64,000 bases of DNA, taken from assembly GCA_964016885.1 (NCBI GenBank), contig CAXHJY010001456.1, forward strand, positions 30,963 to 94,962, given 5' to 3'. Below are positions 288 through 59,202 of this stretch, one piece after another. Position numbers and translations under genes: made by a program. The stretch comes from Eledone cirrhosa. Its lineage: Eukaryota. Position 1 is the first letter of the stretch, and each line of letters begins with the position of its first letter. Below the pieces are notes generated by a model that ran no database searches, was not told the DNA's origin, and was given only the letters and a program-made list of their open reading frames with translations.

Positions 288-2053
288 TTAACTGTATACT
301 TTGTGAAAAGTTCTATGGAATTTATGCAGGCAGATAGAAAACAAATCTGTGCGTCTATTTATTATAGAATCTAGGTTAGAGATAATGGTAAATTTTTCAT
401 TTAGGCAGAGATTACAGATTTTAGATAGAGAGCTGTTCAAGTATGAGGATGCAGAAGAAATCTTCTTCCAAAAGATGGTATATTTAATGTTTTTGTCTTT
501 TAAGGACCATATGAGTTCTGAGAGAGCAGTGTTAGTTCTTTTAAGTTTGTATTTGAAAGATGAATGATGATTATAGAGACGAGCTTTAAAAGAGGTGGAA
601 GTGGAGCCAAAATAGGTGAAGGAATTGGTGCTAGTTATAATTTTACATTCATAAATTAAGTTTTTATCGAGACAATGGTTGTTGAGAGGACATTTATTTT
701 TAATGCGGCAGTTGCAATTAGAGAGATTATTAATGAGTGATCTAGTGTTATCTATAGAAGGAATTGGATTGGAGAAGTTGTTTGCGATAGGAATAATAGG
801 AATAATAGTTTCTTGATTTAGAGTTGGATTATGAACATTTAGCGAAGTCGTGTTTGACGTTGTATTTGGGTTTACAGAAGTTAGCCTAGGGTTTACAATG
901 ACGTCGGGAGTACTATTACTGTTATTATGAAATTCAATATTGGAAGGAAGATATTTAGTATTTAGTATTTTATTGTTGTGTTTAGAGATGATGTTGGAAA
1001 TATTGGAGGATGTAGAATACGAAAATTTGATGGTGTGTTTGTTAAATATTTTACTATAGATATGTGAGGGAGGGAAGCATTTATTTAAGGCACTAAAAAA
1101 TAGTTTAGGAATATTGTTATTAATAGAGATGGAGAAAGGAGCATTATACCAGATTATGTTTTTGTATCTAGGTCTTTTATTAAAATTATTGGAATGGTCA
1201 TGATTAATTATTCTACTGTAAGTTTTTCTAGAATTTGTTTCTTTATTATATTTGATTTTATCTGGATAGCCGGCTTTAGAAAGTGCGTTATTATAGTAAT
1301 TGGCGTTAGCATCAAAGATGTTTTTATTAGAAGATATGTTAGATATTCTATTTCCAATATTATTAACTATAGCATTCTTGATATTGGTAGGATGGTTAGA
1401 TTTAAAGTTAACATAATTAAGGTTCTCATTGTTTTTATGGTAAGGGTAATATAGGCCAGTGTCAAGATTAAGAGATACATCCAAGAAATTAGCTAGTTTG
1501 ATACTATTATCAAATTCAATTTTTAGGTTATGTTGGTTAAAGAGATTACGTATATTGTTCTTAATAATATTAAGGTTAACTATATTGCAATTTAGGATAG
1601 TAAAGAGTCCATCGTCACGATAAATTCCACCGCGAAGTTGAGGAATTTTCCGACTCAAAGAGTTCAAAATGAAGATACCAATTAAATCAGTCAATTGGGA
1701 TGAATCGGATGCTCCCATTGTGATGTCGAAGTTGTTAGAGGTATCGGTTCTGGTCCAATATTCGTTGTTGAACTCTAGGATGGTTTTACGTGCGGTGAGG
1801 ATGATGTGAAGTTCATCTGTGGTGATGTCAGAATATTTAAGTGCGAAAGATAGAGCATTATTGAGAAGTGAAGGCGAAATGGAGGAATAGTAGCTGGCAA
1901 TATCAAATTGAATAAATTTTAGTTTGTTTTTATTATCCAATTTGTTGAACCAGCCAATCACTTCAGAAGTACCAAACCATAAATTTAGGTTCAAAGAAGA
2001 GCAATTAGAACTAATCTGTGGGTTAATTCTATCCAAGATGGCTTTACTAATTC
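288..2053 (-). mobile_element. Penelope-like retroelement PLE-1, 5'-truncated: RT plus C-terminal GIY-YIG endonuclease
   Basis: ORF 288-2036 has RT motifs FDIASYYSSI, TMGASDSSQLTDLIG and IYRDDGL, a CNC..CPL..C linker, GIY-YIG-like LIYECKI...YFGSTSTSFKARLYNH and a C-terminal CxLC..EK..I..INRR. The frame is cut at about 2053. Confidence 0.92.
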
Positions 2054-2742
2054 CCTTCGTTAATTTTCAAATTCCTTTAATTTATACATTATCTTCCAAC
2101 GGTTCCCAACCTCTCTATGTTAAAACAATATATCTTTTTCTCAGTTATAAAAACTATCTCTTTCTCTCTATCACCCATCTCTCCCTCTCCACCTTCACTC
2201 TCATCTTCTCCCCCTTTTTTTCACCCCCCCCCTCCCTAAATAAAATATTTTATCCTCGCACATATCCTCCCTTCGTTAATTTTCAAAATTTTTAATTTAT
2301 ACAGTATCTTCCAACGGTTTTCAACCTCTCTATGTAAAAAATATATCTCCTCTCAGTTATAAAAACTATCTCTTTCTCTCTATCACCCATCTCTCCCTCT
2401 CATCTCCTTCCCTTTTCATCCTTTCCACCCCCCCTCTCTAAATAAAATATTTTTCCCAATATCACACATCAATCTAAAACCACTTTTCATATGTTGATTT
2501 AAAACTGCATTATCCACAAGTGTTTTTTAGCCTTCATATCATGTTCTCCTGTTTTATCTGATGAAAACACAAATATAATTGCATGATGATGTTTGTTTTT
2601 GAAATGCGCATAATAAAATATATGGAACTCCTTTAACCATCTTTTGATCTTATATTATGCATACTCCAGTCCTACAAACTGTAGAGTGCTTCTTATCCGA
2701 TATCTGCATTGCTTTATTTACTACAATAAAACTCACCTCCTA

Positions 2743-3042: not shown

Positions 3043-3175
3043 TGCAAAAGTTTTATTTAAGATTGTTGGGTTACAACGAGTAAATATTTTATAACTGATA
3101 TAAAAGCACTCAACAGTTTCTGGAGTAGGTTTACGATATTAAACAAATGGAAACTATATTTATAAAACCATATTT

Positions 3176-3239
3176 ATTTCGTTATATATATTTCTGGGAT
3201 ATCATATTAAATATATGGTATGCCTTCCTCAGACAAAAT
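3176..3239 (-). ncRNA. Hammerhead ribozyme motif, family B
   Basis: Reverse complement of the 4870-4933 motif. Confidence 0.8.
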
Positions 3240-4869
3240 ACAATACATAAGCTGTTTTATAAATAATTATTGACATACCTTATAATAATGCAACTTCCAT
3301 TTAAAAAGTTGATTTGGTAGTGAAACTGTTATGACAGTTATATAGAAAGAAAAACGAAGATGAGAAGAAGAAGATGAAGAGATGTATGTAAATAAAAATA
3401 AAAAAAAGAAGAAGATGAAGAGATGTATGTAAAGAAAAACAACAGAGCGAGATAGAGAGACAAGGAGATATGGGAGAGAGAAATACATTGAGGAAGTGAA
3501 AAAATATAGTAAGCAGCTTTTGGACAGATGATCATCGTATATGTGAGAGGTTAAGGAGGGAAGGGATACAGTTAAACTAGCCGACACATAAATCACGTCC
3601 AGTGTATAGGAGAAAAAGAAAGAAAGATGATATATTTAAAATATATTAAAAATATATTATGTCTCATCCATTTGAATTATCAATTTTTATGAATTAGGTA
3701 TTATAATGTAAATATCAGTATTCATGAATGAGACAAATATCCATAATGTGTGAAAAAATCTTTTGAATAAATTTTTAAGCTGGATAAACTTCTATAATAA
3801 ATATAAGAGCATTTGTAGAATAAGTTTTGATTGATTTCTGCTAAATAAGGCTTGGTGAACAATCTTGGTTTTGTTTGCTTTTGATTCTGATTTTATGTGA
3901 CCGATATGCGTGGCATACTATGTTCTCTTGCGTCCCTAGATACTCTGTGGAGTCACGAAGATATTCTTGGCATTTTTAATTTTTAATATTGATATCTGTT
4001 GTCTACTCTATGCTTGATCGATAATCATGCAAGTGAGGCTGGAATGTTATTTTAAATGTTAATGTATATCTTATATATTTTATGTCTATATATATGTATA
4101 TATGTATGTAAATGTATGTAGGGTGGAATCTTTTGTAACGCAATGAAGTTTTTCATGAAATATAAGAATCTGTGGAGCATATCACATAGGTTCACAGGTG
4201 TGTCTATATTTATCAACTTTAATTTGAGATAACCTTCTCTTTTCTCTTTTTTTCTCTTTTTCTTTTTTCACGAGAATGCATATATACTTATGTTTGAAGT
4301 TTTATCTCAGATTTTGCTTATAGACCTAAGAATTTTTAAACTAAGCATGTGGTCATTTTGTTCACACATTATGGATATGTGTCTCATTCATGAATACTGA
4401 TATTTACATTATAATACCTAATTCATAAAAATTGATAATTCAAATGGATGAGACATAATATATTTTTAATATATTTTAAATATATCATCTTTCTTTCTTT
4501 TTCTCCTATACACTGGACGTGATTTATGTGTCAACTAGTTTAATTGTATCCCTTCCCTCCTTAACCTCTCACATATACGATGATCATCAATCCAAAAGCT
4601 GCCTACTATATTTTTTCACTTCCTCAATGTATTTCTCTCCCATATCTCCTTGTCTCTCTATCTCGCTCTGTTGTTTTTCTTTACATACATCTCTTCATCT
4701 TCTTCTTTTTTTATTTTTATTTACATACATCACTTCATCTTCTTCTCATCTTCGTTTTTCTTTCTATATAACTGTCATAACAGTTTCACTACCAAATCAA
4801 CTTTTTAAATGGAAGTTGCATTATTATAAGGTATGTCAATAATTATTTATAAAACAGCTTATGTATTGT

Positions 4870-4975: not shown

Positions 4976-5407
<432 letters not shown>

Positions 5408-5620
5408 TCGTTTCTGAATTTGTTTAGCAAGATTCTTTATCTGAAATCGTGTGTTGAAACCGATATTGTTATACTTTGGGAGGGTCATGTTGCCAATAAG
5501 AAACACACGCACCAGTTGCTTTCACTTCAATTTATTATATATTTATAAATTTACAAATCTACAAACTTATAAGTTTCTGGTTGGTTAGTTGGTTCCACAA
5601 CCAGATAGTTGTTTATATAT

Positions 5621-5665
5621 AGTCATAGTCCTTTCGTCACACACTCTGTGACCTCTTCAGTGACT
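5621..5665 (-). ncRNA. Hammerhead ribozyme motif in the PLE-2 pseudo-LTR, family C
   Basis: Minus strand: agtca-CTGAAGA-g-gtcaca(gagtg)tgtgac-GAAA-ggac-TA-tgact. Confidence 0.88.
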
Positions 5666-5962
5666 GGGGATTCCTTTCTTTGTTTCTGTGCCTTTCCTTT
5701 CTTCTATACTACGCCATTTTGTTTCTGTGTGTGTGTTGTGTGCTCAGTTTGCGCATGTGCCACATCCGGGTGTCTGTGTGTGTTTGTGTTCATTTATCTA
5801 TTTGTTTATTTATTTATTTATTGTTGGTTGGTTGTTTGTTCTATGTGTGTGTGTGTTTTCATTTTGTCCTGTGTGTGTTTTCATTTTGTCCTTAATTGTA
5901 AGTTGTTTGTTCTATGTGTGTGTGTGTTTTCATTTTGTCCTGTGTGTGTTTTCATTTTGTCC

Positions 5963-8665
5963 TTAATTGTAAGTTGTGATGTTGCTGTTCCACTCATATT
6001 TTCTATTTAATTTTGGTTTTAATTCTTTTATGCTTACTGCCTCTGTAATTTGCCTAAACATTGCGTCTTTTCTGTGTGTGGATTCTATTTTTATTTCTAT
6101 GCTCTCTAATCTACCCCTGTGTTCTATCTTAGCATGTTGGTATAGTACAGATGATTCTTTATTATCTTGAAGGTCTCGACAGTGTTCATTTATCCGTTCC
6201 CCTATACTACGAGCTGTCTCACCTATGTACACTATACTTTTGTTTCTACATTGTCCTTCAGTACATCTTATGCTATACACTACATTTCTAGTTTTACAGT
6301 TAATGTGGGGGCTTATTTTACAGGTTATACATTTCTTATCTATACATGAGGGTCTTTGGAACGGGTATGTCTTGCTAATAAGTGTTTTTACGGAGGTACC
6401 TGGTCTTTCTACTATCTTAATATTGAGATTATGTTTATTTAGGGCCCTTCTAAATTTATAGGCTAGTTCGCCTCTAGGGGTTGTATTGATGAACATTACA
6501 CTCTGGTATTTATTGCTATCATACCATGAGTTTATTCTATTGGCCTTGTTCCTAGTTCTTTCTATTCTATTCCAAAATTTGCTCCTATACAAGGGGCGGG
6601 TCCCATTTATGTCATTATTTATGATTTTTTCCCATTTGGTTCTGGCTCCTTTATGCACTCTGATTCTATCTCTCTGATTGTAGCCAGAGAACTGCATACG
6701 GTGGATGAAGTGTTGTATGTGTCTCTCTAGTTCTTCAGGGTTGCACATGCGGGACACATTTCTCATCACCCGTACCAAATCCGCAATCAGTATGTTGATT
6801 TTGGTATGGTCCGAAGTGGCCGAGTTTCGGTGGATCAGATGTTTGGAAGTCATGGGTTTGGCATAAAGGGAATGGAGGATTTGTTTTTGGTTGTTAATGG
6901 TATCTAACCAGAGCTCTGTGTCTAGTACAGGTAATTGATGATTGAGGTCTCTACTTGGGTAGTCTATAGTAACTCTAATGCTCTGGTGGATGGAGTTTGC
7001 TATTTGCTGGATGCTTTCCATTGTGTTTTTCTCTAGTTCCTGACTGTTCTTTAGTGGGGGTGTCTTAACTACGATGTTTATATCATCTACGTAGCGGGAG
7101 TACATTATCAGGGTTAAGCTGTCTTCTAATAGTTCATTAAGTTTTTGTTTAAGTCTACTGTCCCACCATACCATGAATAAGTTAGCTATGTCGCCTGCAA
7201 TGCTAACACCAATGGCTGCTCCTTCCTCTTGGGCATATGTTTTACCATTAAATTTGAACATATGTTCCTTAAGGGTTAATTTTATGCTGGCCCCTACCGC
7301 ATGTGCAATCATTTTCTTCAGTTCATCGTGGTTTTCGGCTGTCCGTATGGCTCTGGTCCACCCGTTCCATCTATCTGTGTGGGTTTTCTTGGCCATTGAG
7401 GTAATGGTAGGTGGTCTGCCTCTTGCTGGTCTTGTAGGGCACAGGTTGCTAAGGTCATAAGTGTCTAGGTAACTATTACTATGGGTAAGCTTAAGTAGAA
7501 GTCCCAGCTCACTGGTATCAATCCCACGGAACTCAACTTTGCTCTCGCTGATCATTTCTACGCATTTCTCCACACCAAAATCCACGTCAATAGATGGATA
7601 CAGGGACACAACATCCATACTGCCTATTATGCAGTTTGTTAGGTCCCCAAATCGGTTACCCGCGCCGATTTTCCTGAGGAGGTCCTCCGTGCTGTCACAC
7701 ACATCTGGGGACATCTCAATGATGGGGCGTATGATCAGGGAGAGGAAGTAGGACAGTCTGTAGTTACTAGCAATGTTAGCCCCACAGACCGGCCGTGTTG
7801 GTGGTCCCGCGACAGGGTCCCAGCCCGTTTTATGGTCTTTTCGAAGCCCATACAACGCCGGCACGTCATTGTTCCAGGCCTGGAAGTTGTTGGCAGTCCT
7901 TTTGTTGGGCTGCATTATATTCGTCCACATCACCATATGGGCATTGAGGGCTTTTTCTCTATCCTCATGCTCCTGTGGTGTTACCTCTCTTGTGTTAGTG
8001 ATGTGGGGTTGCATTGCCTGGATGTAGTTTGGCAGGCTGTCAACCGACATTCTGCCAGACTTGTCTGTTGGAAAACATGCTATCTCTCCATTACGCGAGC
8101 GCTGCATGAGCTTACGCAAGCCATTTGCAGATTCTTCTCCCAGTTGCTGGGCCTCTATTCTATTATGCTTATTGCTATACTGTTCTATAATATTTCTAAG
8201 TTCGGATTTAGCTATACTAAATTGTGCTTCTGTTTGTTCATCGACCTGCGACGGCAACTGCGTGCGTTTGTTAAATGGCAAAGTCGTGGCGTGGACTCGT
8301 CGTAGGTCGAATGATTTATCGGAGGGGTTATAAAACGGAGAGTTCCAGGCTGCTGCTTTATGTGTACTAGTGCTATTATTATTGTTAGTTGTGTTGTTTC
8401 TATTTCTATTTCCACCAACAGCCTCATGGTTGTTTCTATGTCTCTCATAATTACTCCTGTCTCTTTCCACTGGCTCAATGTTATTATCTACCCTATTTTG
8501 TGTGTCTGTGTGTTCGTCTTGGTTATTCTCTTTGTCCTTAGTCTCCCATCTCCTTTTCCTTTTAATCCTATTACTTTCTCTTATTTCTCTGATTTCTGTG
8601 CTACTGTCATTACTTGTTTTCTGTGTCTGTGTGTTTGTTAAGATTGTGGTGTTGGTGAGAGGCAT
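5963..8665 (-). CDS. PLE-2 reverse transcriptase / GIY-YIG endonuclease ORF
   Basis: PTDKSG, LYGLRKDHK, PTRPV, SMDVVSLYPSI, GAAIG, YSRYVDD, LPVLD and VVYSIRC..YIGETARSIGERINEH..EAVSI..LN. Confidence 0.92.
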   Translation of the reverse strand: MPLTNTTILTNTQTQKTSNDSSTEIREIRESNRIKRKRRWETKDKENNQDEHTDTQNRVDNNIEPVERDRSNYERHRNNHEAVGGNRNRNNTTNNNNSTSTHKAAAWNSPFYNPSDKSFDLRRVHATTLPFNKRTQLPSQVDEQTEAQFSIAKSELRNIIEQYSNKHNRIEAQQLGEESANGLRKLMQRSRNGEIACFPTDKSGRMSVDSLPNYIQAMQPHITNTREVTPQEHEDREKALNAHMVMWTNIMQPNKRTANNFQAWNNDVPALYGLRKDHKTGWDPVAGPPTRPVCGANIASNYRLSYFLSLIIRPIIEMSPDVCDSTEDLLRKIGAGNRFGDLTNCIIGSMDVVSLYPSIDVDFGVEKCVEMISESKVEFRGIDTSELGLLLKLTHSNSYLDTYDLSNLCPTRPARGRPPTITSMAKKTHTDRWNGWTRAIRTAENHDELKKMIAHAVGASIKLTLKEHMFKFNGKTYAQEEGAAIGVSIAGDIANLFMVWWDSRLKQKLNELLEDSLTLIMYSRYVDDINIVVKTPPLKNSQELEKNTMESIQQIANSIHQSIRVTIDYPSRDLNHQLPVLDTELWLDTINNQKQILHSLYAKPMTSKHLIHRNSATSDHTKINILIADLVRVMRNVSRMCNPEELERHIQHFIHRMQFSGYNQRDRIRVHKGARTKWEKIINNDINGTRPLYRSKFWNRIERTRNKANRINSWYDSNKYQSVMFINTTPRGELAYKFRRALNKHNLNIKIVERPGTSVKTLISKTYPFQRPSCIDKKCITCKISPHINCKTRNVVYSIRCTEGQCRNKSIVYIGETARSIGERINEHCRDLQDNKESSVLYQHAKIEHRGRLESIEIKIESTHRKDAMFRQITEAVSIKELKPKLNRKYEWNSNITTYN

Positions 8666-8995
8666 TGAATGCGTGTGTTGTTGTTGTTGATGTGTGTTGT
8701 TGTTGATGTGTGTTGTTGTTGATGTGTGTTGTTGTCTCCGTGTGTGTTATCGTTGTTGTGTGTGTTATTATTGTTGTTTGTGTCTGCGTGTCTGTTGTTG
8801 TTGTATCTGGGTATGTTGCTATTGTTGTTGTTGTTGGTGTGTGTGTTGTTATTGCTGTTTGTGTCTGCGTGTCTGTTGTTGTTGTATCTGGGTATGTTGC
8901 TATTGTTGTTGTTGTTGTTGATGTGTGTGTTGTTGTTATTGTTGTTTGTGTCTGTGTGTCTGTTGTTGTTGAGATGTGTGTTGTATATGTGTGTG
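8640..8995. repeat. (GTT)/(GT) low-complexity tract with a ~66-bp duplicated unit inside the PLE-2 N-terminal coding region
   Basis: Encodes Asn/Thr/His runs (NNNSNIPRYNNNRHADTN twice). The frameshift between ORFs 8638-9267 and 5963-8665 falls here. Confidence 0.85.
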
Positions 8996-9182
8996 CGTAT
9001 ATTGTTGCTTTTGTTTTTGATGCTCCAGCGTAGTTTTGTAAATGATTTTTCTATTTCTGACAGACAACTAATCATATTTACCTTCTTGAATGTCGCAAAT
9101 TTGGGTGGCAGACATAACACAGACATTTCATTATTATCTATTTCCGTGTTTCCATAAATGTTGGTATTTTCGTTGTTGAACC

Positions 9183-11285
9183 AAAAGACCATAAGACCAA
9201 AATACCATAAAACGGGCTGGGACCCTGTCGCGGGACCACCAACAAAGCCAGTCTGTGGGGATAACATTGCTAATAACTACAGACTGTCCTACTTCCTCTC
9301 CCTGATCATACGCCCCATCATTGAGATGTCCCCAGATGTGTGTGACAGCACGGAGGACCTCCTCAGGAGAATCGGCGCGGGTAACCGATCTGGGGACCTA
9401 ACAAACTGCATAATAGGCAGTATGGATGTTGTGTCCCTGTATCCATCTATTGACGTGGATTTTGGTGTGGAGAAATGCGTAGAAATGATCAGCGAGAGCA
9501 AAGTTGAGTTCCGTGGGATTGATACCAGTGAGCTGGGACTTCTACTTAAGCTTACCCATAGTAATAGTTACCTAGACACTTATGACCTTAGCAACCTGTG
9601 CCCTACAAGACCAGCAAGAGGCAGACCACCTACCATTACCTCAATGGCCAAGAAAACCCACACAGATAGATGGAACGGGTGGACCAGAGCCATACGGACA
9701 GCCGAAAACCACGATGAACTGAAGAAAATGATTGCACATGCGGTAGGGGCCAGCATAAAATTAACCCTTAAGGAACATATGTTCAAATTTAATGGTAAAA
9801 CATATGCCCAAGAGGAAGGAGCAGCCATTGGTGTTAGCATTGCAGGCGACATAGCTAACTTATTCATGGTATGGTGGGACAGTAGACTTAAACAAAAACT
9901 TAATGAACTATTAGAAGACAGCTTAACCCTGATAATGTACTCCCGCTACGTAGATGATATAAACATCGTAGTTAAGACACCCCCACTAAAGAATAGTCAG
10001 GAACTAGAGAAAAACACAATGGAAAGCATCCAGCAAATAGCAAACTCTATCCACCAGATCATTAGAGTTACTATAGACTACCCAAGTAGACACCCCAACA
10101 ATCGATTACCTGTACTAGACACAGAGCTCTGGTTAGATACCATTAACAACCAAAAACAAATCCTCCATTCCCATTATGCCAAACCCATGATTTCCAAACA
10201 TCTGATCCACCGAAACTCGGCCACTTCGGACCATACCAAAATCAACATACTGATTGCGGATTTGGTACGGGTGATGAGAAATGTGTCCCGCATGTGCAAC
10301 CCCGAAGAACTAGAGAGACACATACAACACTTCATCCACCGTATGCAGTTCTCTGGCTACAATCAGAGAGATAGAATCAGAGTGTATAGAGGAGCCAGAA
10401 CCAAATGGGAAAAAATGGTAAATAATGACATAAATGGGACCTGCCCCTTGTATAGGAGCAAATTTTGGAATAGAATAGAAAGACTAGGAACAAGGCGAAT
10501 AGAATAAACTCATGGTATGATAGCAATAAATACCAGAGTGTAATGTTCATCAATACAACCCCTAGAGGCGAACTAGCCTACAAATTTAGAAGGGCCCTAA
10601 ATAAACATAAACTCAATATTAAGATAGTAGAAAGACCAGGTACCTCCGTAAAACACTTATTAGCAAGACATACCCGTTCCAAAGACCCTCATGTATAGAT
10701 AAGAAATGTATAACCTGTAAAATAAGCCCCCATATTAACTGTAAAACTAGAAATGTAGTGTATAGCATAAGATGTACTGATGGACAATGTAGAAACAAAA
10801 ATATAGTGTACATAGGTGAGACAGCTCGTAGTATAGGGGAACGAATAAATGAACACTGGCGAGACCTTCAAGATAATAAAGAATCATCTGTGCTCTACCA
10901 ACATGCTAAGATAGAACACAGGGGTAGATTAGAGAACATAGAAATAAAAATAGAATCCACACACAGAAAAGATGCAATGTTTAGGCAAATTACAGAGGCA
11001 GTAAGCATAAAAGAATTACAACCAAAATTAAATAGAAAATATGAGTGGAACAGCAACATCACAACTTACAATTAAGGACAAAATGAAAACACACACACAC
11101 ATAGAACAAACAACCAACCAACAATAAATAAATAAATAAATAAATAAACAAATAGATAAATGAACACAAACACACACAGACACCCGGATGTGGCGCATGC
11201 GCAAACTGAGCACACAACACACACACAGAAACAAAATGGCGTAGGATAGAAGAAAAGAAAGGCACAGAAACGAAGAAAGGAATCC
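9183..11285 (+). mobile_element. PLE-2 inverted, 5'-truncated second arm (frameshifted)
   Basis: Near-identical reverse complement of about 5670-7840. It is split into ORFs 9158-10507 and 10758-11075 by single-base losses. Confidence 0.93.
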
Positions 11286-11375: not shown

Positions 11376-12407
11376 AAGAATCAAAGAACTGTTCAAAACA
11401 TTATTGTGCTTACAGCTGTTTCCTCCAAACCGAGGTTTGGATTCTTCGGAGCAATTTATTAATGCATGGACAGTTAGATGACCTCCTTTTCAGCCGAGAG
11501 ACATACCGATACATATTCAAACATTGATACATATTCAAAAATTGGGGGTCAACATTCATTACAGAATTTAGACTGGCAGTACACACTTGGAGATTACATT
11601 TATATTAAGAGGTACAATCAAAAATCAAAAATACAGGTTAAAATACAACATGAAGATAAGCGGTTATATAGTGCAAATGTTATATGTGTGGCACGCATGT
11701 GCGTCTTGTTTATATAGTGTGGCAGAGAGATATGTGTGGTAGAGGCACTTAGGTAGGTAAACAAGAGTGTTAGGTTGGTAGATCTGGTGGTAAATTCTTT
11801 ATATGATTGATATAGTCTGTGTGTGGAGAAACATTATAAGCATTAAAAATAGTGCAAGCATTAAAAGTGTTAAAAGTATTGGAGATGCACAGCGCAGGGA
11901 AGTCAAGTATTTCATGTACTTCGGCATTTTCATGGTCAGGGGAGTGTATTTTTCGATTATATGCCCTTCACATAATGCACGACAATCCAGTTAGAGATCG
12001 TAGTCTGGTGTTCTTTAGTTCAATACAGGAGGCTGTTACGTTTCTAGAAACGCCATTGAATACCGCCCGGAAGTGTGTGTGTGGCTAAGGCGAGTTAATG
12101 CATGCGGGGAGGTAACTCTGGGGTTTCTATACCTAGCTATTAAAATGTGTCCCAATATAGACCCTAATTTCTAGAGTGATGCGCATCCTCCAAGAGAAAT
12201 TTTTAAAGCATAAAGTGTATTAACTATAGAGTAGTTTAACTAAGTTATGCTGAAGGTGATCATATTATTATGGTGGAATTTACCACCAGATCTACCAACC
12301 TAACACTCTTGTTTACCTACCTAAGTGCCTCTACCACACATATCTCTCTGCCACACTTTATAAACAAGACGCACATGCGAGCCACACATATAACATTTGC
12401 ACTATAT
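11368..12407 (-). mobile_element. Non-autonomous HHR-bearing element (family E) with a terminal inverted duplication
   Basis: About 11666-11797 is inverted at about 12276-12407. An HHR lies near the other end, and the element is (TA)n-flanked. Confidence 0.65.
11407..11453 (-). ncRNA. Hammerhead-like motif, family E (CCGAAGA core variant)
   Basis: tgct-CCGAAGA-a-tccaaacc(tc)ggtttgga-g-GAAA-CAGCTG-TA-agca. Confidence 0.72.
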
Positions 12408-12413
12408 AAATAT

Positions 12414-12476
<63 letters not shown>

Positions 12477-12691
12477 AATATATATATAAATATATATATA
12501 TAAATATATATATAAATATATATATATAAATATATAAATATATATATAAATATATATATATAAATATATATATAAATATATATATATAAATATATATAAA
12601 TATATAAATATATATATATATATATATAAATATATATAAATAATATATAAATATATATATATAATATATAAATATATATATATAATATATA

Positions 12692-12727
<36 letters not shown>

Positions 12728-13026
12728 AATATATATATATAATATATAAATATATATATATAATATATAAATATATATATATAATATATAAATATATATA
12801 TATAATATATAAATATATATATATAATATATAAATATATATATATAATATATAAATATATATATATAAATATATAAATATATATATATAATATATAAATA
12901 TATATATATAATATATAAATATATAAATATATATATATATAAATATATATATATATAAATATATATATAATATATAAATATATATATAATATATAAATAT
13001 ATATATAAATATATATATAATATATA

Positions 13027-13076
<50 letters not shown>

Positions 13077-13078
13077 AT

Positions 13079-13109
<31 letters not shown>

Positions 13110-13118
13110 ATATATATT

Positions 13119-13150
<32 letters not shown>

Positions 13151-13163
13151 ATATATATATATT

Positions 13164-13219
<56 letters not shown>

Positions 13220-13236
13220 ATAATATATATATATTT
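12405..13236. repeat. (TA)n/(TAAA) microsatellite
   Basis: Direct reading. Confidence 0.98.
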
Positions 13237-13533
13237 AAAAACAAATAACGAAACGAAATTAAATTTCGTTTCGTTTGTAACTCACTTTTGTATGACTGAC
13301 GCTCAAACAATCAAGTCAAAGATGTACATCCATATATGTATACTGAAATACTAGTATGTATATGAATACACACACGTATACATATGTAGATGTACCAAGT
13401 TTTTTTTTCACTGATCACTTTACTGTGAGTGGCCAGCTATTCTGTATGTAAACACACAGACAAACCGGTTTTTAGAGTCATACTGGTTTTTGAGGAAACA
13501 CCTTTCCTCTATTCCCCAGAAAGCCAGACAAGG

Positions 13534-13578
13534 AATATTGAACTAGTTTCGTTGTTGTTACAACTCATCAGCAATATT
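13534..13578 (-). ncRNA. Hammerhead ribozyme motif, family F
   Basis: Reverse complement of 14249-14293. Confidence 0.9.
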
Positions 13579-14002
13579 TACCTATCTTCCGGCCTCTCTA
13601 GAGAATCGTAAAAGCACATATCGCTATATGCTTTTTCTATGAAAATTAGTAGTGGGCAGACCAACTTGCATAGAGTGTGAGTAAGTACCGGTTCAACGGA
13701 GACGATAAAAACAAATAACGAAACGAAATTAAATTTCGTTTCGTTTGTAACTCACTTTTGTATGACTGACGCTCAAACAATCAAGTCAAAGATGTACATC
13801 CATATATGTATACTGAAATACTAGTATGTATATGAATACACACACGTATACATATGTAGATGTACCAAGTTTTTTTTCACTGATCACTTTACTGTGAGTG
13901 GCCAGCTATTCTGTATGTAAACACACAGACAAACCGGTTTTTAGAGTCATACTGGTTTTTGAGGAAACACCTTTCCTCTATTCCCCAGAAAGCCAGACAA
14001 GG

Positions 14003-14047
14003 AATATTGAACTAGTTTCGTTGTTGTTACAACTCATCAGCAATATT
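14003..14047 (-). ncRNA. Hammerhead ribozyme motif, family F
   Basis: Reverse complement of 14249-14293. Confidence 0.9.
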
Positions 14048-14248
14048 TACCTATCTTCCGGCCTCTCTAGAGAATCGTAAAAGCACATATCGCTATATGC
14101 TTTTTCTATGAAAATTAGTAGTGGGCAGACCAACTTGCATAGAGTGTGAGTAAGTACCGGTTCAACGGAGACGATAAAAACAAATAACGAAACGAAATTA
14201 AAGCGATATGTGCTTTTACGATTCTCTAGAGAGGCCGGAAGATAGGTA

Positions 14249-14293
14249 AATATTGCTGATGAGTTGTAACAACAACGAAACTAGTTCAATATT
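14249..14293 (+). ncRNA. Hammerhead ribozyme motif, family F
   Basis: aatattg-CTGATGA-gttgt(aaca)acaac-GAAA-CTAG-TT-caatatt. Stems I and II are perfect. Confidence 0.92.
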
Positions 14294-14525
14294 CCTTGTC
14301 TGGCTTTCTGGGGAATAGAGGAAAGGTGTTTCCTCAAAAACCAGTATGACTCTAAAAACCGGTTTGTCTGTGTGTTTACATACAGAATAGCTGGCCACTC
14401 ACAGTAAAGTGATCAGTGAAAAAAAACTTGGTACATCTACATATGTATACGTGTGTGTATTCATATACATACTAGTATTTCAGTATACATATATGGATGT
14501 ACATCTTTGACTTGATATATATATT

Positions 14526-14596
<71 letters not shown>

Positions 14597-14673
14597 ATAT
14601 ATATATAATATATATATAATATATATATAATATATATATATATATAATATATATAATATATATATATATATAT

Positions 14674-14706
<33 letters not shown>

Positions 14707-14732
14707 ATATATATATTTATATATATATATAT

Positions 14733-14765
<33 letters not shown>

Positions 14766-15004
14766 AATATATTTATATATATATATATATTTATATTGTT
14801 ATATTTGGGGAGGGTCATATTTGCGTAATATTGCCAGAATTAATAACAGAACACACTCACTGTTTGGTTGGTTTTCGCTTCTCGCTGTCTTTTATATATA
14901 TATATCTGCGATCTAGCTTACTCGGTCCTCAATGTTGCCATTGACTGACCGGCGGTCAAAAATAATACAGATACAATATAGACAAACACATATATATATA
15001 GTTT

Positions 15005-15047
15005 ACATAAATCTTTCGTTGCACATCTGCAACATCGTCAGTGGTGT
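15005..15047 (-). ncRNA. Hammerhead-like motif in the PLE-3 pseudo-LTR, family D (weak stem I)
   Basis: acacca-CTGACGA-t-gttgca(gatg)tgcaac-GAAA-gatt-TA-tgt. Confidence 0.7.
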
Positions 15048-15318
15048 TATATTCATTGTTCCTCCTGTTGTGTTGTATGTCTACGCCATTTTTTTTGTTC
15101 AGTCTGTCTATATATTTATTTATTTATTTGCTTGTTTGTTTATCTTATTTTATTTTGTCTTCTTTGCGCATGCGTTTGCGTGTGTGTATAGTGTTATGTG
15201 TGATGTGTGATGTGTGACTAGTGTGTATAGTGTTGTCTGCTGGGTGACTAGTGTGTGTTTATGTGCTTGTGTATGTATTTATTTATCTTATTTTATTTAA
15301 TTTAATTTACTTATTTAT

Positions 15319-16602
15319 TTATACTTCTCTTAGGTCAGTGTTGTTTGTTTGGGTGTTGTTGTTGTTCCACTCATTCTTTCTGTTTAGCTTTGGTCTTCTA
15401 ATTTCTATTTCACTGGCCTCTCTGATTTGCCTATCTGCTGGGTCATTCCTATGTTTAGATATTATTCTAATTTCTATGTTGTCTATGTTACCGTCATGAT
15501 GTTGTCTAGCATGTTCGTATAGTACTGACCCGTTTTTTCGTCCTTTTAGTTCCCCCCAGTGTTGGTCTATCCTTTCACCTATGCTACGAGCTGTCTCACC
15601 TATGTATGTTGTTGTCGTGTTTCTGCAAGTACCCTCTGTACATCTTATGCTATAGACTACGTTTCTAGTTTTACAGTTTATCCGGGGGTTCACCTTACAT
15701 ATGATACATTTCCTATTGGTACAGTGGGTTTTCTTAAAAGGGTAGGTTTTGCTGATCAGGGATTTTATGGTGGTTCCTGGCTTTTCTACCACCTTTATTT
15801 TTAAGTGGGTCTTTCTCAGGGCCTTTCTACACTGGTTAGCTAATTTCCCTCCAGGGGTGGCGTCCACAAACATGACACTCTGATATCTCTGGTTGTCGTA
15901 CCATGATGTGGCCTTCCCTATCTTATGTCTAGCCCTATCTAAGCTATTCCATGATTTGCTCCTGTATAGTGGGCAAATTCCTTTCATGTCCAGTTCTATG
16001 AGGGTCTTATACTTTTCCATGGCTCCTTCGTATACTCTGACTCTGTCTCTTTGGTTGTAGCCAGAGAACTGCATGCGGTTGATGAAGTGTTGGATGTGTC
16101 CTTCCATTTCTGTTGGGTCGCACATGCTGGACACATTCTTCATCACTCGTACCAAATCTGCGATCAGAATATTAAACTTAGCACTACTGGACATTGCTGA
16201 GTTTTTGAGTATCAGGTATTTGGAGGCCATGGGTTTAGCATAGTGTGAGTGGAGAATTTGGGCTCTCTCGTCTATAGTGTTAATCCAGAGTTCTGTGTCT
16301 AATACAGGTAGTCTATTGTTAGGGTGTTTGGAAGGGAAGTCTATAGTTACAGTTATACTCTGGTGTATGGAATTAGCTATCTGCTGGATGCTTTCCATCG
16401 TGCTACGTTCTAAATCAAACTTGTTAGTGCTGTCTAGTGGGGGTGTTCTTATAACTATATTGATATCGTCTACATAACGAGAGTACATGATGAGGTCTAT
16501 GGAGCTTTCATTAAGGAGATCTTTAAGTCTCCTTTCCCACCATACCATGAAAAGGTTGGCAACATCGCCAGCTATGCTGACGCCGATGGCTGCTCCCTCA
16601 TT
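15319..16602 (-). CDS. PLE-3 RT C-terminal half plus GIY-YIG endonuclease (truncated)
   Basis: Colinear with the PLE-2 protein from EGAAIG onward. The first ~19 aa of the tracked ORF come from the inverted pseudo-LTR. Confidence 0.88.
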   Translation of the reverse strand, partial: NEGAAIGVSIAGDVANLFMVWWERRLKDLLNESSIDLIMYSRYVDDINIVIRTPPLDSTNKFDLERSTMESIQQIANSIHQSITVTIDFPSKHPNNRLPVLDTELWINTIDERAQILHSHYAKPMASKYLILKNSAMSSSAKFNILIADLVRVMKNVSSMCDPTEMEGHIQHFINRMQFSGYNQRDRVRVYEGAMEKYKTLIELDMKGICPLYRSKSWNSLDRARHKIGKATSWYDNQRYQSVMFVDATPGGKLANQCRKALRKTHLKIKVVEKPGTTIKSLISKTYPFKKTHCTNRKCIICKVNPRINCKTRNVVYSIRCTEGTCRNTTTTYIGETARSIGERIDQHWGELKGRKNGSVLYEHARQHHDGNIDNIEIRIISKHRNDPADRQIREASEIEIRRPKLNRKNEWNNNNTQTNNTDLREV

Positions 16603-16689
16603 TTTTTCCAAGCGAAAACCAACCAAACAGTGAGTGTGTTCTGTTATTAATTCTGGCAATATTACGCAAATATGACCCTCCCCAAATAT

Positions 16690-16767
<78 letters not shown>

Positions 16768-16768
<1 letters not shown>

Positions 16769-17171
16769 CAATATTAAATAAATGGAAACTATATTTATAA
16801 AACCATATTTATTTCATTATATATATTTCAGGGATATCATATTAACAATATGCTATGCCTTCCTCAGACAAAATACAATATAAACAGTTGAATTGGCACT
16901 GCCAATTCAACTTTTCAAATACAAGTCGATGTTGTTACGGTATGTCAAATCTATTTATCTATAAAACTGTTTATATTGTATTTTGTCTGAGGAAGGCATA
17001 GCATATTGTTAATATGATATCCCTGAAATATATATAATGAAATAAATATGGTTTTATAAATATAGTTTCCATTTATTTAATATTGTAAATATACTCCAAA
17101 TACTTGTCGAGTGCTTTTATATCAGTTATAAATATTTACTAGTTGTAACCCAACAATTTAAATATAACTTT

Positions 17172-17328: not shown

Positions 17329-18272
17329 TTTCGTTTGTGAATTTGTTTAGCAAGATTCTTTATCTGAAATCGTGTGTTGAAACCGATATTGTTATATTTT
17401 GGGAGGGTCATGTTGCCAATAAGAAACACACGCACCAGTTGCTTTCACTTCAATTTATTATATATTTATAAATTTATAAATTTACAAATCTACAAACTTA
17501 TAAATTTCTGGTTGGTTGGTTGGTTCCACAACCAGATAGTTGTTTATATATATAGTCATAGTCCTTTCGTCACACACACTGTGACCTCTTCAGTGACTGG
17601 GGATTCCTTTCTTCGTTTCTGTGCTTTTCCTTTCTTCTATCCTACGCCATTTTGTTTCTGCGTGTGTGTTGTGTGCTCAGTTTGCGCATGCGCCACATCC
17701 GGGTGTCTGTGTGTGTTTGTGTTCATTTTTCTATTTATTTATTTATTTATTTATTTATTTAGTTGGTTGGTTGTTTGTTCTATGTGTGTGTGTGTTTTCA
17801 TTTTGTCCTGTGTGTGTTTGTGTTTTCATTTTGTGTGTGTTTTCATTTTGTCCTTAATTGTAAGTTGTTTGTTCTATGTGTGTGTGTGTTTTCATTTTTT
17901 CCTTAATTGTAAGTTGTGATGTTGCTGTTCCATCATAAATAAACAAATAGAAAAATGAACACAAACACACACACGGATGTGGCGCATGCGCAAACTGAGC
18001 ACACAACACACACACAGAAACAAAATGGCGTAGGATAGAAGAAAAGAAAGGCACAGAAACGAAGAAAGGAATCCCCAGTCACTGAAGAGGTCACAGAGCG
18101 TGTGACGAAAGGACTATGACTATATATAAACAACTATCTGGTTGTGGAACCAACCAACCAACCAGAAATTTATAAGTTTGTAAATTTGTAAATATATAAT
18201 AAATTGAAGTGAAAGCAACTGGTGCGTGTGTTTCTTATTGGCAACATGACCCTCCCAAAGTATAACAATATA
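17329..18272. mobile_element. Solo inverted pair of PLE-2 pseudo-LTRs with HHRs at 17554-17598 (minus) and 18077-18121 (plus)
   Basis: 17329-17932 matches 5407-5990. 17935-18272 is its inverted partial copy. Confidence 0.88.
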
Positions 18273-26062: not shown

Positions 26063-26459
26063 GTAGGAGGTGTTTTATTGTAGTACAATAAAGCAATGCA
26101 GATATCGGATAAGAAGCACTCTACAGTTTGTAGGACTGGAGTATACATAATATAAGATCAAAAGATGGTTAAAGGAGTTCCATGTATTTTATTATGCGCA
26201 TTTCAAAAACAAACACCATCATGCAATAATATTTGTGTTTTCATCAGATAAAACAGGAGAACATGATATGAAGGCTAAAAAACACCTGTGGACAGTGCAG
26301 TTGATTTAAAACTGCACTGTCCACAGGTGTTTTTTAGCCTTCATATCATGTTCTCCTGTTTTATCTGATGAAAACACAAATATTATTGCATGATGATGTT
26401 TGTTTTTGAAATGCGCATAATAAAATACATGGAACTCCTTTAACCATCTTTTGATCTCA
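26062..26459. mobile_element. Family A fold-back pair with HHRs at 26186-26254 (minus) and 26358-26426 (plus)
   Basis: Palindrome centred near 26305, matching 2500-2745. Confidence 0.85.
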
Positions 26460-26599: not shown

Positions 26600-27097
26600 A
26601 AGGAACGATCGACTTTCGTCAAATCGGACCGAGGGAACAATGTTTCGGTTGGTCTTTCCAATTGCTACTACTATCTATCGGTCGCAACTCCAGGTAGAAG
26701 GATATACGATATTAATAAATGGAAACTATATTTATAAAACCATATATTGTATTGTGCCTTCTTCAGACATAATACAATATATAACAGTTTTACAAATAAG
26801 CTTTGACGTACCCTTTTAACATGCAACCATTATTTTTGGAAGCCATCAGGTTGCATTTTAAAAGGATACGTCAAAGCTTATCTGTAAAACTGTTATATAT
26901 TGTATTTTGTCTGATGAAGGCATACCATAATTTAATTTGGTATCCCTGAAATATGTATAATGAAATAAATATGGTTTTATAAATATAGTTTCCATTTATT
27001 AATATCGTATATCTACTCCAAATACTTGTCGAGTGCTTTATATCAGTTATAAAAATATTTACTTGTTGTATCCCAACAATTTAAATAGAACTTTTTT
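26600..27097. mobile_element. Family B-like fold-back element with an HHR at 26904-26966 (plus)
   Basis: attttgt-CTGATGA-agg.ataccа-type stem II-GAAA-tatgta-TA-atgaaat. The inverted arm at 26705-26830 carries a deleted HHR. Confidence 0.75.
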
Positions 27098-27139: not shown

Positions 27140-28078
27140 AGTAATAATAATACATATGAAGACTAAAATCCAAAGAGGGCTCGATAGGGATAAATATATA
27201 TCAATTATATAAGAACCGTAGAGCAAATATTTATTAAAACAACAGATTAAAGCTTTAATGGGATGTTCTGGTACTAAAAAAAAAAAAAAAATCAATCTGT
27301 GAACACAGAAATAAATATTTCAAAAAATGTTGCAACCAAAGGAAGACAGGAAGACGATACTTTGGTTCGTGATGACGTACTTTTAGGTATTTCATCCTGC
27401 TTGGTACGGGTATGTTCTTTGTAGAAATATTCAGATGTTTCTGCATGATGAATATAAGTCAATAGAGTACTCAGTCAAGGGATCCAAATAGTAATAATAA
27501 AAAATTTGAAGACTAACATCCAAAGAGGGCTCGATAAGGATAAATATATATCAAATATATAAGAACCGGAGCGCAAATATTTATTAAAATAACAGATTAA
27601 AGTTTAAGCAAAGAATCGGCTGCTTTCACCCTTAATGGGATCTTCTGAAACTATAAAAAAAAAAAAATCAATCTGTGAACGCAGAAGTAAATATTTCGAA
27701 AAACGTTGCAACCGAAGGAAGACAGGAAGGCGATACTTTGGTTCGTGGATACGTAGTTTTAGGTATTTCTTCCTGCTTGGTACGTGTATATTCTTTGTAG
27801 AAATATTCAGATGTTTCTGCATGATGAATATAAGTCAATAGAGTACTCAATCAAGGGAGCCAAATAGTAATAATAATAAATTTGAAGACTAACATCCAAA
27901 GAGAGCTCGATAAAGATAAATAAATATCAAATATAAAAGAACCGTAGAGTTAAAATAACAGATTAAAGTTTAAGCAAAGAATCGGCTGCTTTCACCCTTA
28001 ATGGGATCTTCTGAAACTATTAAAAAAAAAAAAAAAAAAAAAAAAATTAATCTGAACACAGAAGTAAATATTTTTAAG
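27140..28078 (-). mobile_element. ~360-bp tandem repeat (about 2.5 copies) with variant HHRs at 27602-27651 and 27968-28017, family L
   Basis: Units start at 27141, 27491 and 27867. Minus strand: gttt-CAGAAGA-tccc(attaa)gggt-GAAA-gca...tgc-TT-aaac. Confidence 0.65.
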
Positions 28079-28189
28079 CAGACCTTTCCCAAATGCACCT
28101 CTCAAGGGCAATGACACACAACCATGACCTCTGGCGTCACACAGTAATACAGAAGACCCGACTTTCCACAGGAACATATAGACAATATT

Positions 28190-29935
28190 TGTTTTCCTTT
28201 GTTTTTTTATGTGTCCTATCAACTAATCCGACCTCCAAAATGCTTGCAATTGACTATTTTTTTTAGCATATTAACAACAAATATGATTTCCACTGCAATT
28301 AAAAATGACTAGCTTTGTGAATGGTTTTTCCAGCCACTTTCTGCCTTATTTTTCTACAAAGCTAATCATTGACGATAGGTTTCAAAGTTATATTCATTCA
28401 TAATATGTGAAAAAAATAGTCAACTGCGAGCATTGGTGTGATGTAAATGGTAGGAGTAGGTGTTCTGTAATAAATTTACCATATAGTGAAGTATGGTTAT
28501 GGTGAATTTATGGGGTGGATTGGGGTAGATTAATGTGCTGTGGTGTGCTTTGTTATAAGTGGGGATTTCAATTTCAACTTTGATTTATGTTAGAAAAAAA
28601 TATTTCCTTCATTTTTGCATGTGCTATCAACTTACAAGATGCTCACAGTGGACTATGCTTTTAACATATTAACAAAAAATATGACTTCCGCTGCAATAAA
28701 AAATGGCTAGCTTTGTAAATGGTATTTCCACCCACATCCTCCCTCTTTTTTCTACAAAGCTAGTCATTTTCATCAGGTTTCCATGTCATAACCATTAATA
28801 ATATGTGCATAAAATAGTAATTTGCGAGCACCTTTGATGTCAAATTGGGTGGTAAGAACAAAAAAAAGAAAAAAGAAAAAATGCCAGATGAAAATTTGTC
28901 ACACCAAAATCAATAACTTGGTGTGATCTAGTATGGTGTAGTTTGGTGAAGTTTCTACAAAGATAGTCATTTTCGATAGGTTTCCATGTCATAATTATTG
29001 ATATGTGAAAAATAAAAGTAAATTGGGAGCACCTTTAATGTCAGATTGGGTGGTGAGCGCACAGAAAAAAAAAAAGGAAACGGGGAAAAAAATTTTTCAC
29101 ACCAAGATCAATAGCTTTGTGCGATGTAGTATGGTGTATCTTGGTATGGTGTGGTGAAGTTATGAAATGGAAACCAATTGTAAACGATAGATTCCCATGT
29201 CATATTCATTGATAATGTGTGGGAAAATAGTCATTTGCAAGCACCTTTGATGTTAGTTTGAGGTGGTAACAAAAAAAAAAAAAAAAAAAAAAAAAGCAGG
29301 TAGCAAATTTGTCACAGTGATTTCCATACCATGGTGTGATGTAAATGGTAGGTGTTATGTAATAAATTTACCATATAGTGAAGTCTATGGTGTGGATTGG
29401 GGTAGATTAATGTGCTGTGATGTGCTTTGTTATAAGTGGGGATTTCAATTTCAACTTTGATTTACGTTAGAAAAAAATTTTTCCTTCATTTTTGCATGTG
29501 CTATCAACTTCCAAGATGCTCGCAGTGGACTATGCTTTTAACATATTAACAAAAAATATGACTTCCGCTGCAATAAAAAATGGCTAGCTTTGTAAATGGT
29601 ATTTCCACCCACATCCTCCCACTTTTATCTACAAAGCTAGTCATTTTGATCAGGTTTCCATGTCATAACCATTAATAATATGTGCATAAAATAGTAATTT
29701 GCGAGCCTCTTTTATGTCAAATTAAGCACAAAATAAAAATTAAAAAAATTTAAAAAAATGCCAGATGAAAATTTGTCACACCAAAATCAATATCTTGGTG
29801 TGATGTAGTATGGTGTGGTTTGGTGAAGTTTCTACAAAGATAGTAATTTTCGATAGGTTTCCATGTCATAATTATTGATAAGTGGAAAAAAAAATAGTCA
29901 ATTGGGAGCACCTTTAATGTGCAGATTGGGTGGTA

Positions 29936-29987
<52 letters not shown>

Positions 29988-50200: not shown

Positions 50201-50796
50201 GATGTAGAGTATTGAATTCCGTTTACCGGTCGTTGGATCCTTGGTTTGGCCCATGAAAGTTCCCAGAACGGGCAGGTCGTGCTTGCTGGCAGATTCAAAG
50301 CGATGTTTGACATATTGCAGCTTCGGTTTTCCTAATTGTTTCCAAACTGACAAGGAAACAAAATTGCCTGTAGTAGCTATGTCCAATTCCATTGTGAAAA
50401 GTCTGTTCTGGATTGTTATTGGCACATTCAAACTATGAGTATCGTGGGGAACTTCACCAAGGATCGCCTTGACTAGCTCAGCTTTCGTGATTCTTTTCAC
50501 GTAATTCTGTGAGCGATGATCACGTTGCTGATATTGTTTCTTTCTACACACCGCTTGCAAATGTCCCTTTTTGTCACAAAAATGACATTTGGCTTCTTTG
50601 AAGGGGCAGTCTGTTGCTTTGTGGGCCTTTCCACATCGGTAGCACATCTCCTGGTCTGTGGAATAAGACTGCTGATGGTTCTTTCGAGGACCATTGTTCT
50701 TGTTCAGCTGGACCTTGTAGACTTGCTTGGTTTTGGAACCGTAAACAGTTTCCTTGGCAACCTTTGCTGCGTCTTCGGTCCCGATGGCAACTTGGA
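46944..50796 (-). mobile_element. Decayed Ty3/Gypsy LTR retrotransposon (Mag-like), 5' part missing
   Basis: Double zinc knuckle CYRCGKAH..C/CHFC..KGH..C, protease MELDIA, RT FQDD, RNase H CDAS/TDHKPL and integrase HLGH..CDLC/ITDN/PATNGAAE, in PR-RT-RH-INT order with many frameshifts and stops. Confidence 0.95.
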
Positions 50797-51369
50797 CAGA
50801 AAGAAAGAAAGGAAGGAGAGAGAAGAAGGGGGAAGAAAGAAGAAGAGAAGCCAGGGTTAAGCCTGGCTTCTCTTCTTTCTTCCCCCTTCTCTCTCGTCCC
50901 TTTCTTTCTTTCTTTTACCTTGTGTCATGAGATTGACGTTAATCTATGTTCCCATCCCTTTCTGTTTTCGTTTATCTGACCGGTAGTAGCATACTATAAA
51001 ATTTAGCCACGTCACTCGAGAGCGACCGGCTGAGGTTGAAGGAACAGAATAGCGGTCGCCCTCGGGTCCTCGATTTTCAGCCCCATGGATTTTATCTATT
51101 ACATTCACGTATTATATTTCGAATACCTGATGATATCACCGGATTCATACGGAACCCGGTCATTGAAATGATCATAGTATAATAAACCTTTCAAGGATTT
51201 ACACAAATCCAGCCTCCTGTCATTTCATTATAATATTTAACTCCGTAATAGCACCACCAACTACAAAATCAAAGACGGTTGAACTGCCTTACGTTGAGTA
51301 CTCTATATTATTGCATTACGATTGACCATACGGAATAGACCACCTCTATACAGTGGTGAACCTCAAACC

Positions 51370-59100: not shown

Positions 59101-59202
59101 AGGGCTGATGCCTTGGGCGTTAAGCAAAAATGTAGAGGCGAGAGTGGATGGTTTTAATTGTTTTGGTGTGTTGTTAATTTGTTTGTTTGTTAATGGCAGC
59201 AA
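56182..59202 (-). CDS. LINE ORF2: AP endonuclease plus reverse transcriptase (~1000 aa)
   Basis: [61 protein letters not shown] and DLGV, with no stops. Confidence 0.95.

Follow-up and report, generated by a model that had tools for sequence, protein, structure and literature searches.

A hammerhead-bearing tandem repeat in Eledone cirrhosa is probably a non-LTR retrozyme copied into a (TA)n tract by a Penelope-like element

Introduction

A short tandem repeat with a hammerhead ribozyme motif in each unit raises the question of whether it is a source of circular RNA, or is instead the product of an event that copied such an RNA into the genome. We address this question for one repeat, which lies in a stretch of 64,000 nucleotides from Eledone cirrhosa (the window, to which all positions refer). 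A first-pass annotation had interpreted it as a retrozyme and as the best candidate for a producer of RNA circles. The retrozyme class is likely to be right. The analysis indicates that an RNA longer than one unit was, in all probability, copied into a (TA)n tract by the reverse transcriptase (RT) and endonuclease of a Penelope-like element (PLE), leaving 2.06 units and an inverted arm.

Published work argues from co-occurrence and phylogeny as to which enzyme moves animal retrozymes, and whether circles are copied or DNA is duplicated. The insertion described here itself bears the signature of a PLE, and its layout demonstrates a template of more than one unit.

Layout of the locus

TRF reports a tandem repeat at 13236-14202 (period 469, 2.1 copies, 99%). 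The features of the locus and its target are as follows.

13236..13705, minus strand: unit 1 (470 nt), which adjoins (TA)n at 13236, the long 3' end
13706..14174, minus strand: unit 2 (469 nt), as unit 1 except for one T
14175..14202, minus strand: last 28 nt of a partial third direct unit, stopping beside the loop of a 13-bp hairpin
14203..14516, plus strand: inverted arm, 314 nt; the short end is the 3' end of this arm and falls 74 nt short of the long one
13236..13309, minus strand: tail, 74 nt, at the direct 3' end only, the inverted arm having no tail
13247..13275, no strand: hairpin with a 13-bp core, inside the tail, with a second copy at 13717-13745
12403..13235, no strand: (TA)n tract (TRF), left side of the target
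14517..14796, no strand: (TA)n tract (TRF), right side of the target

The two units match at all 469 of 469 aligned bases and differ only by one T in a T run, so that the two near-identical 469-bp units described earlier are in fact 470 and 469 nt long. The inverted partial third copy is likewise confirmed: it is the reverse complement of 13780-14093, a part of unit 2, at 314 of 314 bases. The internal hairpin, previously placed at 13241-13278, is present with its core slightly inside those limits. What had been overlooked is that (TA)n tracts stand on both sides, and that the two 3' ends are offset by 74 nt, the inverted one being equivalent to 13310 and the direct one lying 74 nt beyond, at 13236. 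As both flanks are (TA)n, any target-site duplication (a retrozyme criterion, more than 4 bp when present) would be masked.

Where the arms meet (14202/14203), each ends at or next to the apical loop of a local hairpin, one at 13717-13745 and the other at about 14080-14105, and the two overlap by 1 nt. Breakpoints at hairpin loops, of which this is a single case, may reflect stalling of the RT. A separate inverted pair of 127 nt and 98% identity is found at 11671-11797 and 12276-12402; its right arm ends at the left (TA)n tract, and it is possibly another PLE-type end.

Coding capacity and fold of the unit

The description of the unit as non-coding holds. Its longest stop-to-stop frame is 60 aa, and tblastn of six ORFs from the window (five PLE, one LINE) against the unit gave no match better than E 0.83. 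Its G+C content is below 50% (170 of 469), and pattern scans of metagenome contigs returned 0 matches.

13541..14009, minus strand: predicted monomer, 469 nt between cut sites, strongly self-paired

On the hammerhead strand this monomer folds with −155.4 kcal/mol (z −10.1 against shuffled sequences) and the circular form with −151.1 kcal/mol (z −10.0), while the opposite strand gives z −3.9. Three 3' ends of coding PLEs from the window, taken at equal length, are not self-paired (z +0.4, −1.9 and +0.6).

The hammerhead motif

Each of the three copies carries one type I motif.

13518..13589, minus strand: hammerhead motif (type I) of unit 1, with cleavage predicted after 13541 (GUU)
13987..14058, minus strand: hammerhead motif (type I) of unit 2, with cleavage predicted after 14010 (GUU)
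14238..14309, plus strand: hammerhead motif (type I) of the inverted arm, with cleavage predicted after 14286

The cores lie at 14040 (minus), 13571 (minus) and 14256 (plus), with position 17 at 14010, 13541 and 14286 respectively. The cuts near 14010 and 13541, and the 469-nt monomer between them, thus agree with the earlier proposal, as predictions. All three motifs match the full Rfam model Hammerhead_HH9 with 37.7 bits (E 1.3e-7); because this is below the gathering score of 52 bits, a scan at gathering level missed them. A motif of equal strength was seen in 1 of 20,000 Markov-resampled units. Further Rfam matches (mir-297, sraA and others) were discarded as far below gathering and due to the hairpin or to low complexity.

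Helix I is of the extended form, as aligned to HH9, and consists of 7 bp, a bulge and one more helix; helix II has 5 bp. Helix III consists only of the palindrome ACUAGU, with 1-2 bp, and position 17 is U, giving the cut triplet GUU. An alternative register with the cut after UUC was rejected because it breaks a G-C pair beside the core in the Rfam alignment. When the natural dimer is folded, the bases of helices I and II pair with probabilities of 0.63-0.99, and those of helix III with 0.0 in cis. The first-pass annotation had called the hammerheads perfectly paired, which is correct for helices I and II and not for helix III.

The dimeric active fold (−314.7 kcal/mol) is 8.2 kcal/mol more stable than two monomeric active folds (−306.5 kcal/mol). 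Both active forms are less stable than the minimum free energy (MFE) structure (−321.7 kcal/mol), the dimeric one lying 7 kcal/mol above it. Judged from these folding energies, by which cleavage is predicted, the ribozyme probably needs a dimer. GUU is cleaved more slowly than GUC. Together with a helix III of 1-2 bp, it points to weak cleavage. GUU is nevertheless described among the cleavable triplets (PMC3138052); metazoan hammerheads are described as having a short palindromic helix III and cleaving as dimers (PMC4209133), and axolotl retrozymes with a short palindromic helix III are reported to cleave as dimers and to produce circles (PMC7229834).

The family in public sequencing runs

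Words of the unit are present in 20 of the 24 runs listed, none of which is recorded as RNA, and runs coded as 14 organisms hold at least 0.20 of them. Contigs from three runs (X1, X4 and X5) were aligned to one unit only, unit 2. A fourth run, X22 (raw Hi-C reads from organism D, about 1% of them sampled), gave 0 aligned reads, a sample that carries no weight either way, and runs with a share below 0.2 (X18-X20, one of them from wastewater) were set aside. X1 yielded 1042 contigs, of which 435 have a likeness of 99% or more, 335 of 95-99%, 221 of 90-95% and 51 of under 90%. The summed depth in X1 is about 3e4-7e5 per bin; the kind of run is unrecorded, so this depth is not a copy number. The share of X1 contigs that continue into unlike sequence is 0. 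Contigs break at branch points and drop rare forms, and copies linked to an ORF may yet exist in the genome.

The head-to-tail joint is present in all three contig runs, and X4 contains one self-closing contig of 503 nt, a minority haplotype. A circle and a tandem are indistinguishable from contigs, and either would give such a contig. In X1, the unit meets (TA)n in one contig at 13775, near the short end, and in another at 14014, which is 4 nt from the predicted cut and inside the ACTAGT palindrome. Within 14010-14040 no variant of at least 5% is listed in X1, X4 or X5, and GUU is on this ground the state of the family.

X4 and X5 are coded as other organisms. Both are covered to a depth of mostly 10-30, X1 to about 1e5, and some pieces from X4 and X5 match no more than 33-36 nt of the hairpin. 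These traces are likely to be carry-over from a very abundant source, and horizontal transfer, as the list of many organisms might suggest, was rejected on the same two observations.

Two alleles of the locus are almost absent from X1: that at 13782 (about 4.5 of a depth of 215,923) and that at 13984 (about 127 of 550,079). Both occur in the two units and in the arm alike, which is what copying from one template would produce. They provide a clean test of source versus product. X1 holds 0.76 of the unit's words and may come from another individual than the window, and alleles that look private may therefore be so at the level of the individual or the species. The near identity of the units had been taken as a sign of recent activity. 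This does not follow, since copying from one template in one event is expected to give identity, which then dates only the present insertion; the family as a whole is more varied, as the X1 likeness of 99% and above down to below 90% indicates.

Variants and possible editing

Among the 13 variants listed, polarised on the X1 majority, nine are A-to-G on the hammerhead strand and one is T-to-C (p 0.010, or p 0.018 without 13871, a site at a T run). The window carries G at five of the nine A-to-G sites, and at seven of the nine the predicted partner in a stem is U. Of the listed variants, nine are at paired positions: all eight transitions keep pairing on the hammerhead strand (chance about 0.007, from pair counts), and the one transversion, at 14057, breaks it. 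All four changes that are seen in the window alone, or (nearly) in X4 alone, are A-to-G, and every locus copy that covers them has the same ones. In stems there are 7 A-to-G changes and 0 C-to-U (p 0.04). The variant test was post hoc, and its sites are few and partly linked. Singleton variants in three other families of the window, each with few copies, have no excess of A-to-G (3 of 20, 1 of 6 and 6 of 28).

The eight pairing-preserving transitions and the A-to-G bias imply that the hammerhead strand is the one present as a folded RNA, either through editing by ADAR or through selection on structure. The 7 to 0 count in stems leans towards ADAR, though structure selection alone could give part of the bias. 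It is conceivable, though less likely than not, that the genomic copies record an ADAR-edited circle, on which the PLE RT rolled more than twice and then primed the second arm, fixing A-to-I edits in DNA. If this is true, it would be DNA-level evidence for the circle-templated, PLE-driven cycle proposed in the literature, and editing would be a source of retrozyme heterogeneity. RNA editing has been named as a possible cause of that heterogeneity (PMC7229834). A search of the listings of openly accessible literature gave no report of A-to-I footprints in genomic retrozyme copies.

Penelope-like elements in the window

The window is dense in PLEs, with RT and GIY-YIG ORFs at 5963-8746, 9158-11075 and 15319-16731.

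5407-11285, 14797-16693 and 17330-18268: two Neptune-like PLE families, with RT, CX4CxxC linker and GIY-YIG
16769-17171, 26063-26457, 26701-27095, 2493-2743 and 3046-3294: two small palindromic hammerhead insertion families, in (TA)n

The Neptune-like families have about 62% protein identity to each other, inverted 5' arms and (TA)n ends, and solo end pieces of a coding family are found at 17330-18268. In the first, minimal hammerheads lie at 5660, 17593 and 18082, and the tail is 59 nt long; a scan of the 3' end of the second found no hammerhead. The small palindromic families have helix III palindromes of 8 nt, and a similar short hairpin motif recurs in their tails (about 86 and 92 nt). An inverted copy, (TA)n ends and a tail (about 59, 86 and 92 nt) are seen in three further hammerhead families of the window, which stand beside RT/GIY-YIG ORFs. 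Within the 64 kb, no sequence is common to the unit and the ends of the PLEs or of the other hammerhead families.

A possible helper is the ORF at 288-2066 (minus strand), which is of Hydra type and encodes a 5'-truncated RT, a GIY-YIG-type domain and a CxCX5C linker. Pfam gave no match to it, and in the Atlas its look-alikes were RT/GIY-YIG proteins. The CxCX5C linker is described for Hydra-clade PLEs, which target (TA)n and carry canonical hammerheads (PMC8557442).

The window also contains a LINE-type ORF of 1045 aa with endonuclease and RT (56182-59319, minus strand), a broken LTR-retrotransposon pol with RT, RNase H and integrase (47551-50914, minus strand), tandems of about 376, 200 and 224 bp (27255-37000) and one weak tRNA-like match of 30.5 bits (37321-37378, minus strand).

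A model for the insertion

PLE insertions typically have a tail and an inverted 5' copy (Craig et al., 2021, PMC8557442). At AT-rich sites, a PLE protein has been reported to cut the two strands of the DNA and to extend both (Frangieh et al., 2024, PMC11167929), with the RT beginning at two internal sites whose spacing equals the tail (PMC11167929). Retrozymes have been described as passengers of PLEs (PMC7229834; bioRxiv 10.64898/2026.07.22.740005), and those of animals have been argued to be non-autonomous PLE derivatives (bioRxiv 10.64898/2026.07.22.740005).

On this basis the following course of events can be proposed. Tandem copies somewhere in the genome would be transcribed on the hammerhead strand. 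Adjacent hammerheads are predicted to pair via their ACUAGU palindromes and to cleave after GUU; the 469-nt monomers set free in this way are perhaps closed into circles by a host ligase. A PLE protein, if it acts as in the biochemical work, would nick both strands of the (TA)n target. The RT would then have two internal starts with a spacing of 74 nt, one lying 305 nt and the other 231 nt downstream of the cut. The copy begun at the long site would be the 967 nt of direct sequence, which pass the cut site twice, and that begun at the short site would be the 314 nt in opposite orientation, the two meeting at 14202/14203; this layout is what is observed, and the two starts are its presumed cause.

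Because the long copy crosses the cut site twice, its template was either a religated circle or an uncut multimer, and not a linear monomer. The 28-nt overhang leads to a template of more than one unit even if the second unit is disregarded; unit 2 could be a later duplication at DNA level between the two 28-nt direct repeats. An uncut RNA templated the Anolis PLE (PMC11167929), and a circle is consequently not required.

A transcript that enters from upstream would begin with the inverted arm. The arm is predicted to pair with a direct unit and to bury one ribozyme, which would make the locus a poor source of monomers. The locus is for this reason probably a product and not a source of circles, and its former standing as the best circle producer is doubtful: 314 of 314 arm bases are predicted to be paired with the unit, covering one hammerhead. 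As one locus of a described class, it represents a modest gain unless the editing footprint or the circle is confirmed.

Alternative explanations

It is possible, though we doubt it, that the element is the same and was mobilised by a PLE, with no circle involved: the hammerhead would be nearly inactive, and uncut multimeric tandem transcripts would be the template. A multimer and a circle account equally well for passage across the cut site, and the unpaired helix III in cis and the position of the active dimer fold 7 kcal/mol above the MFE agree with low activity. Eight of nine Xenopus dimers were inactive in vitro (bioRxiv 10.64898/2026.07.22.740005), where one of the nine predicted dimers did cleave, and insertion of the Anolis PLE was unaffected by hammerhead mutants (PMC11167929). 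However, the core is conserved, with no variant of at least 5% listed at 14010-14040 in the three contig runs; axolotl retrozymes with a like helix III cleave as dimers and give circles (PMC7229834); and the unit is strongly self-paired at monomer length (z −10). Transcription of the locus itself on the minus strand to yield a 469-nt circle, which was the earlier reading, seems unlikely to us. Two intact hammerheads in the same orientation, 469 nt apart, do correspond to what has been defined as an active retrozyme (bioRxiv 10.64898/2026.07.22.740005), but the predicted 314-bp duplex would cover one of them in read-through RNA, the first is preceded by no more than about 145 nt of direct sequence, and the alleles at 13782 and 13984 are almost absent from X1.

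That the units are pLTR end pieces of an autonomous PLE, 5'-truncated and duplicated in place, with no independent non-coding element, is improbable; the layout is indeed that of truncated PLEs, which surround the locus, and solo ends of a coding family lie at 17330-18268. However, what stands upstream of each unit is the unit itself, twice, with an identical joint that recurs in X1, X4 and X5; the share of X1 contigs running into unlike sequence is 0, the unit has no coding trace, and the ends of the coding families are not self-paired. That the assembly duplicated and inverted one unit between two microsatellites is very improbable: it could be suspected from the near identity of the copies and from the long (TA)n tracts that flank them, but the head-to-tail joint occurs in three of three contig runs, X1 has a (TA)n joint near the short end, and the layout recurs in three other families, with the contig check covering one unit. 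We give equally little credence to a transmissible viroid-like RNA that passes between hosts and is now and then integrated. The runs coded as 14 organisms and the self-closing X4 contig might suggest it, but the two other organisms show depths of mostly 10-30, far below the value of about 1e5 in X1, the hammerhead is on one strand only, and carry-over from an abundant source explains the traces. A non-LTR retrozyme copied by a PLE from an RNA of more than one unit is the reading that we retain.

Comparison with known systems

Endonuclease-bearing PLEs (PMC8557442, PMC11167929) are described with the same partial tandem and inverted 5'-truncated copy, the same tail at one end and (TA)n target, and a hammerhead upstream of the 3' end. 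They differ in that the present locus has no RT/GIY-YIG ORF and its repeating unit is the whole 469 nt; its tail is 74 nt, compared with 30-40 nt in those papers, and its hammerhead has an extended helix I, compared with the minimal PLE form (PMC4209133). An RT and GIY-YIG ORF joined to the repeat, which would mark an autonomous PLE, is absent at the locus, and the share of X1 contigs running on is 0. The insertion works like that of a PLE, though the ORF of an autonomous PLE is lacking. Non-autonomous Chlamys PLEs such as MRC1 (PMC8557442) are similar in being non-coding, multicopy, head-to-tail insertions made by a PLE. Chlamys PLEs are reported generally to share 3' sequence with an autonomous family, whereas the unit has no such partner within the 64-kb window, and the Chlamys clade is described as lacking canonical hammerheads (PMC8557442), whereas the unit has a hammerhead motif.

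The closest resemblance is to animal non-LTR retrozymes (Cervera and de la Pena, 2020, PMC7229834; Li, Clavereau and Pollet, 2026, preprint), as far as these sources describe them. The two have in common a short non-coding tandem unit, one type I hammerhead per unit in the same orientation, G+C under 50%, a strongly self-paired monomer, an abundant multicopy family and the presence of PLEs in the same genome. Helix III resembles that of axolotl HHR_Amex1, which has one pair and a palindromic tetraloop and is dimer-dependent (PMC7229834). The length of 469 nt is just above the 150-450 bp of PMC7229834 and inside the 51-972 bp of the 2026 preprint, and the cut triplet GUU is a difference from the animal elements described. 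Expression and cleavage have been demonstrated for coral, mussel and axolotl retrozymes, whereas for the present unit both are predictions. Mobilisation by PLEs is argued in the retrozyme papers from co-occurrence and pLTR phylogeny, whereas here the insertion itself carries the arm, the tail and the (TA)n target. On all the sequence-level criteria tested the unit fits an animal non-LTR retrozyme, and it is likely to be a new member of that class.
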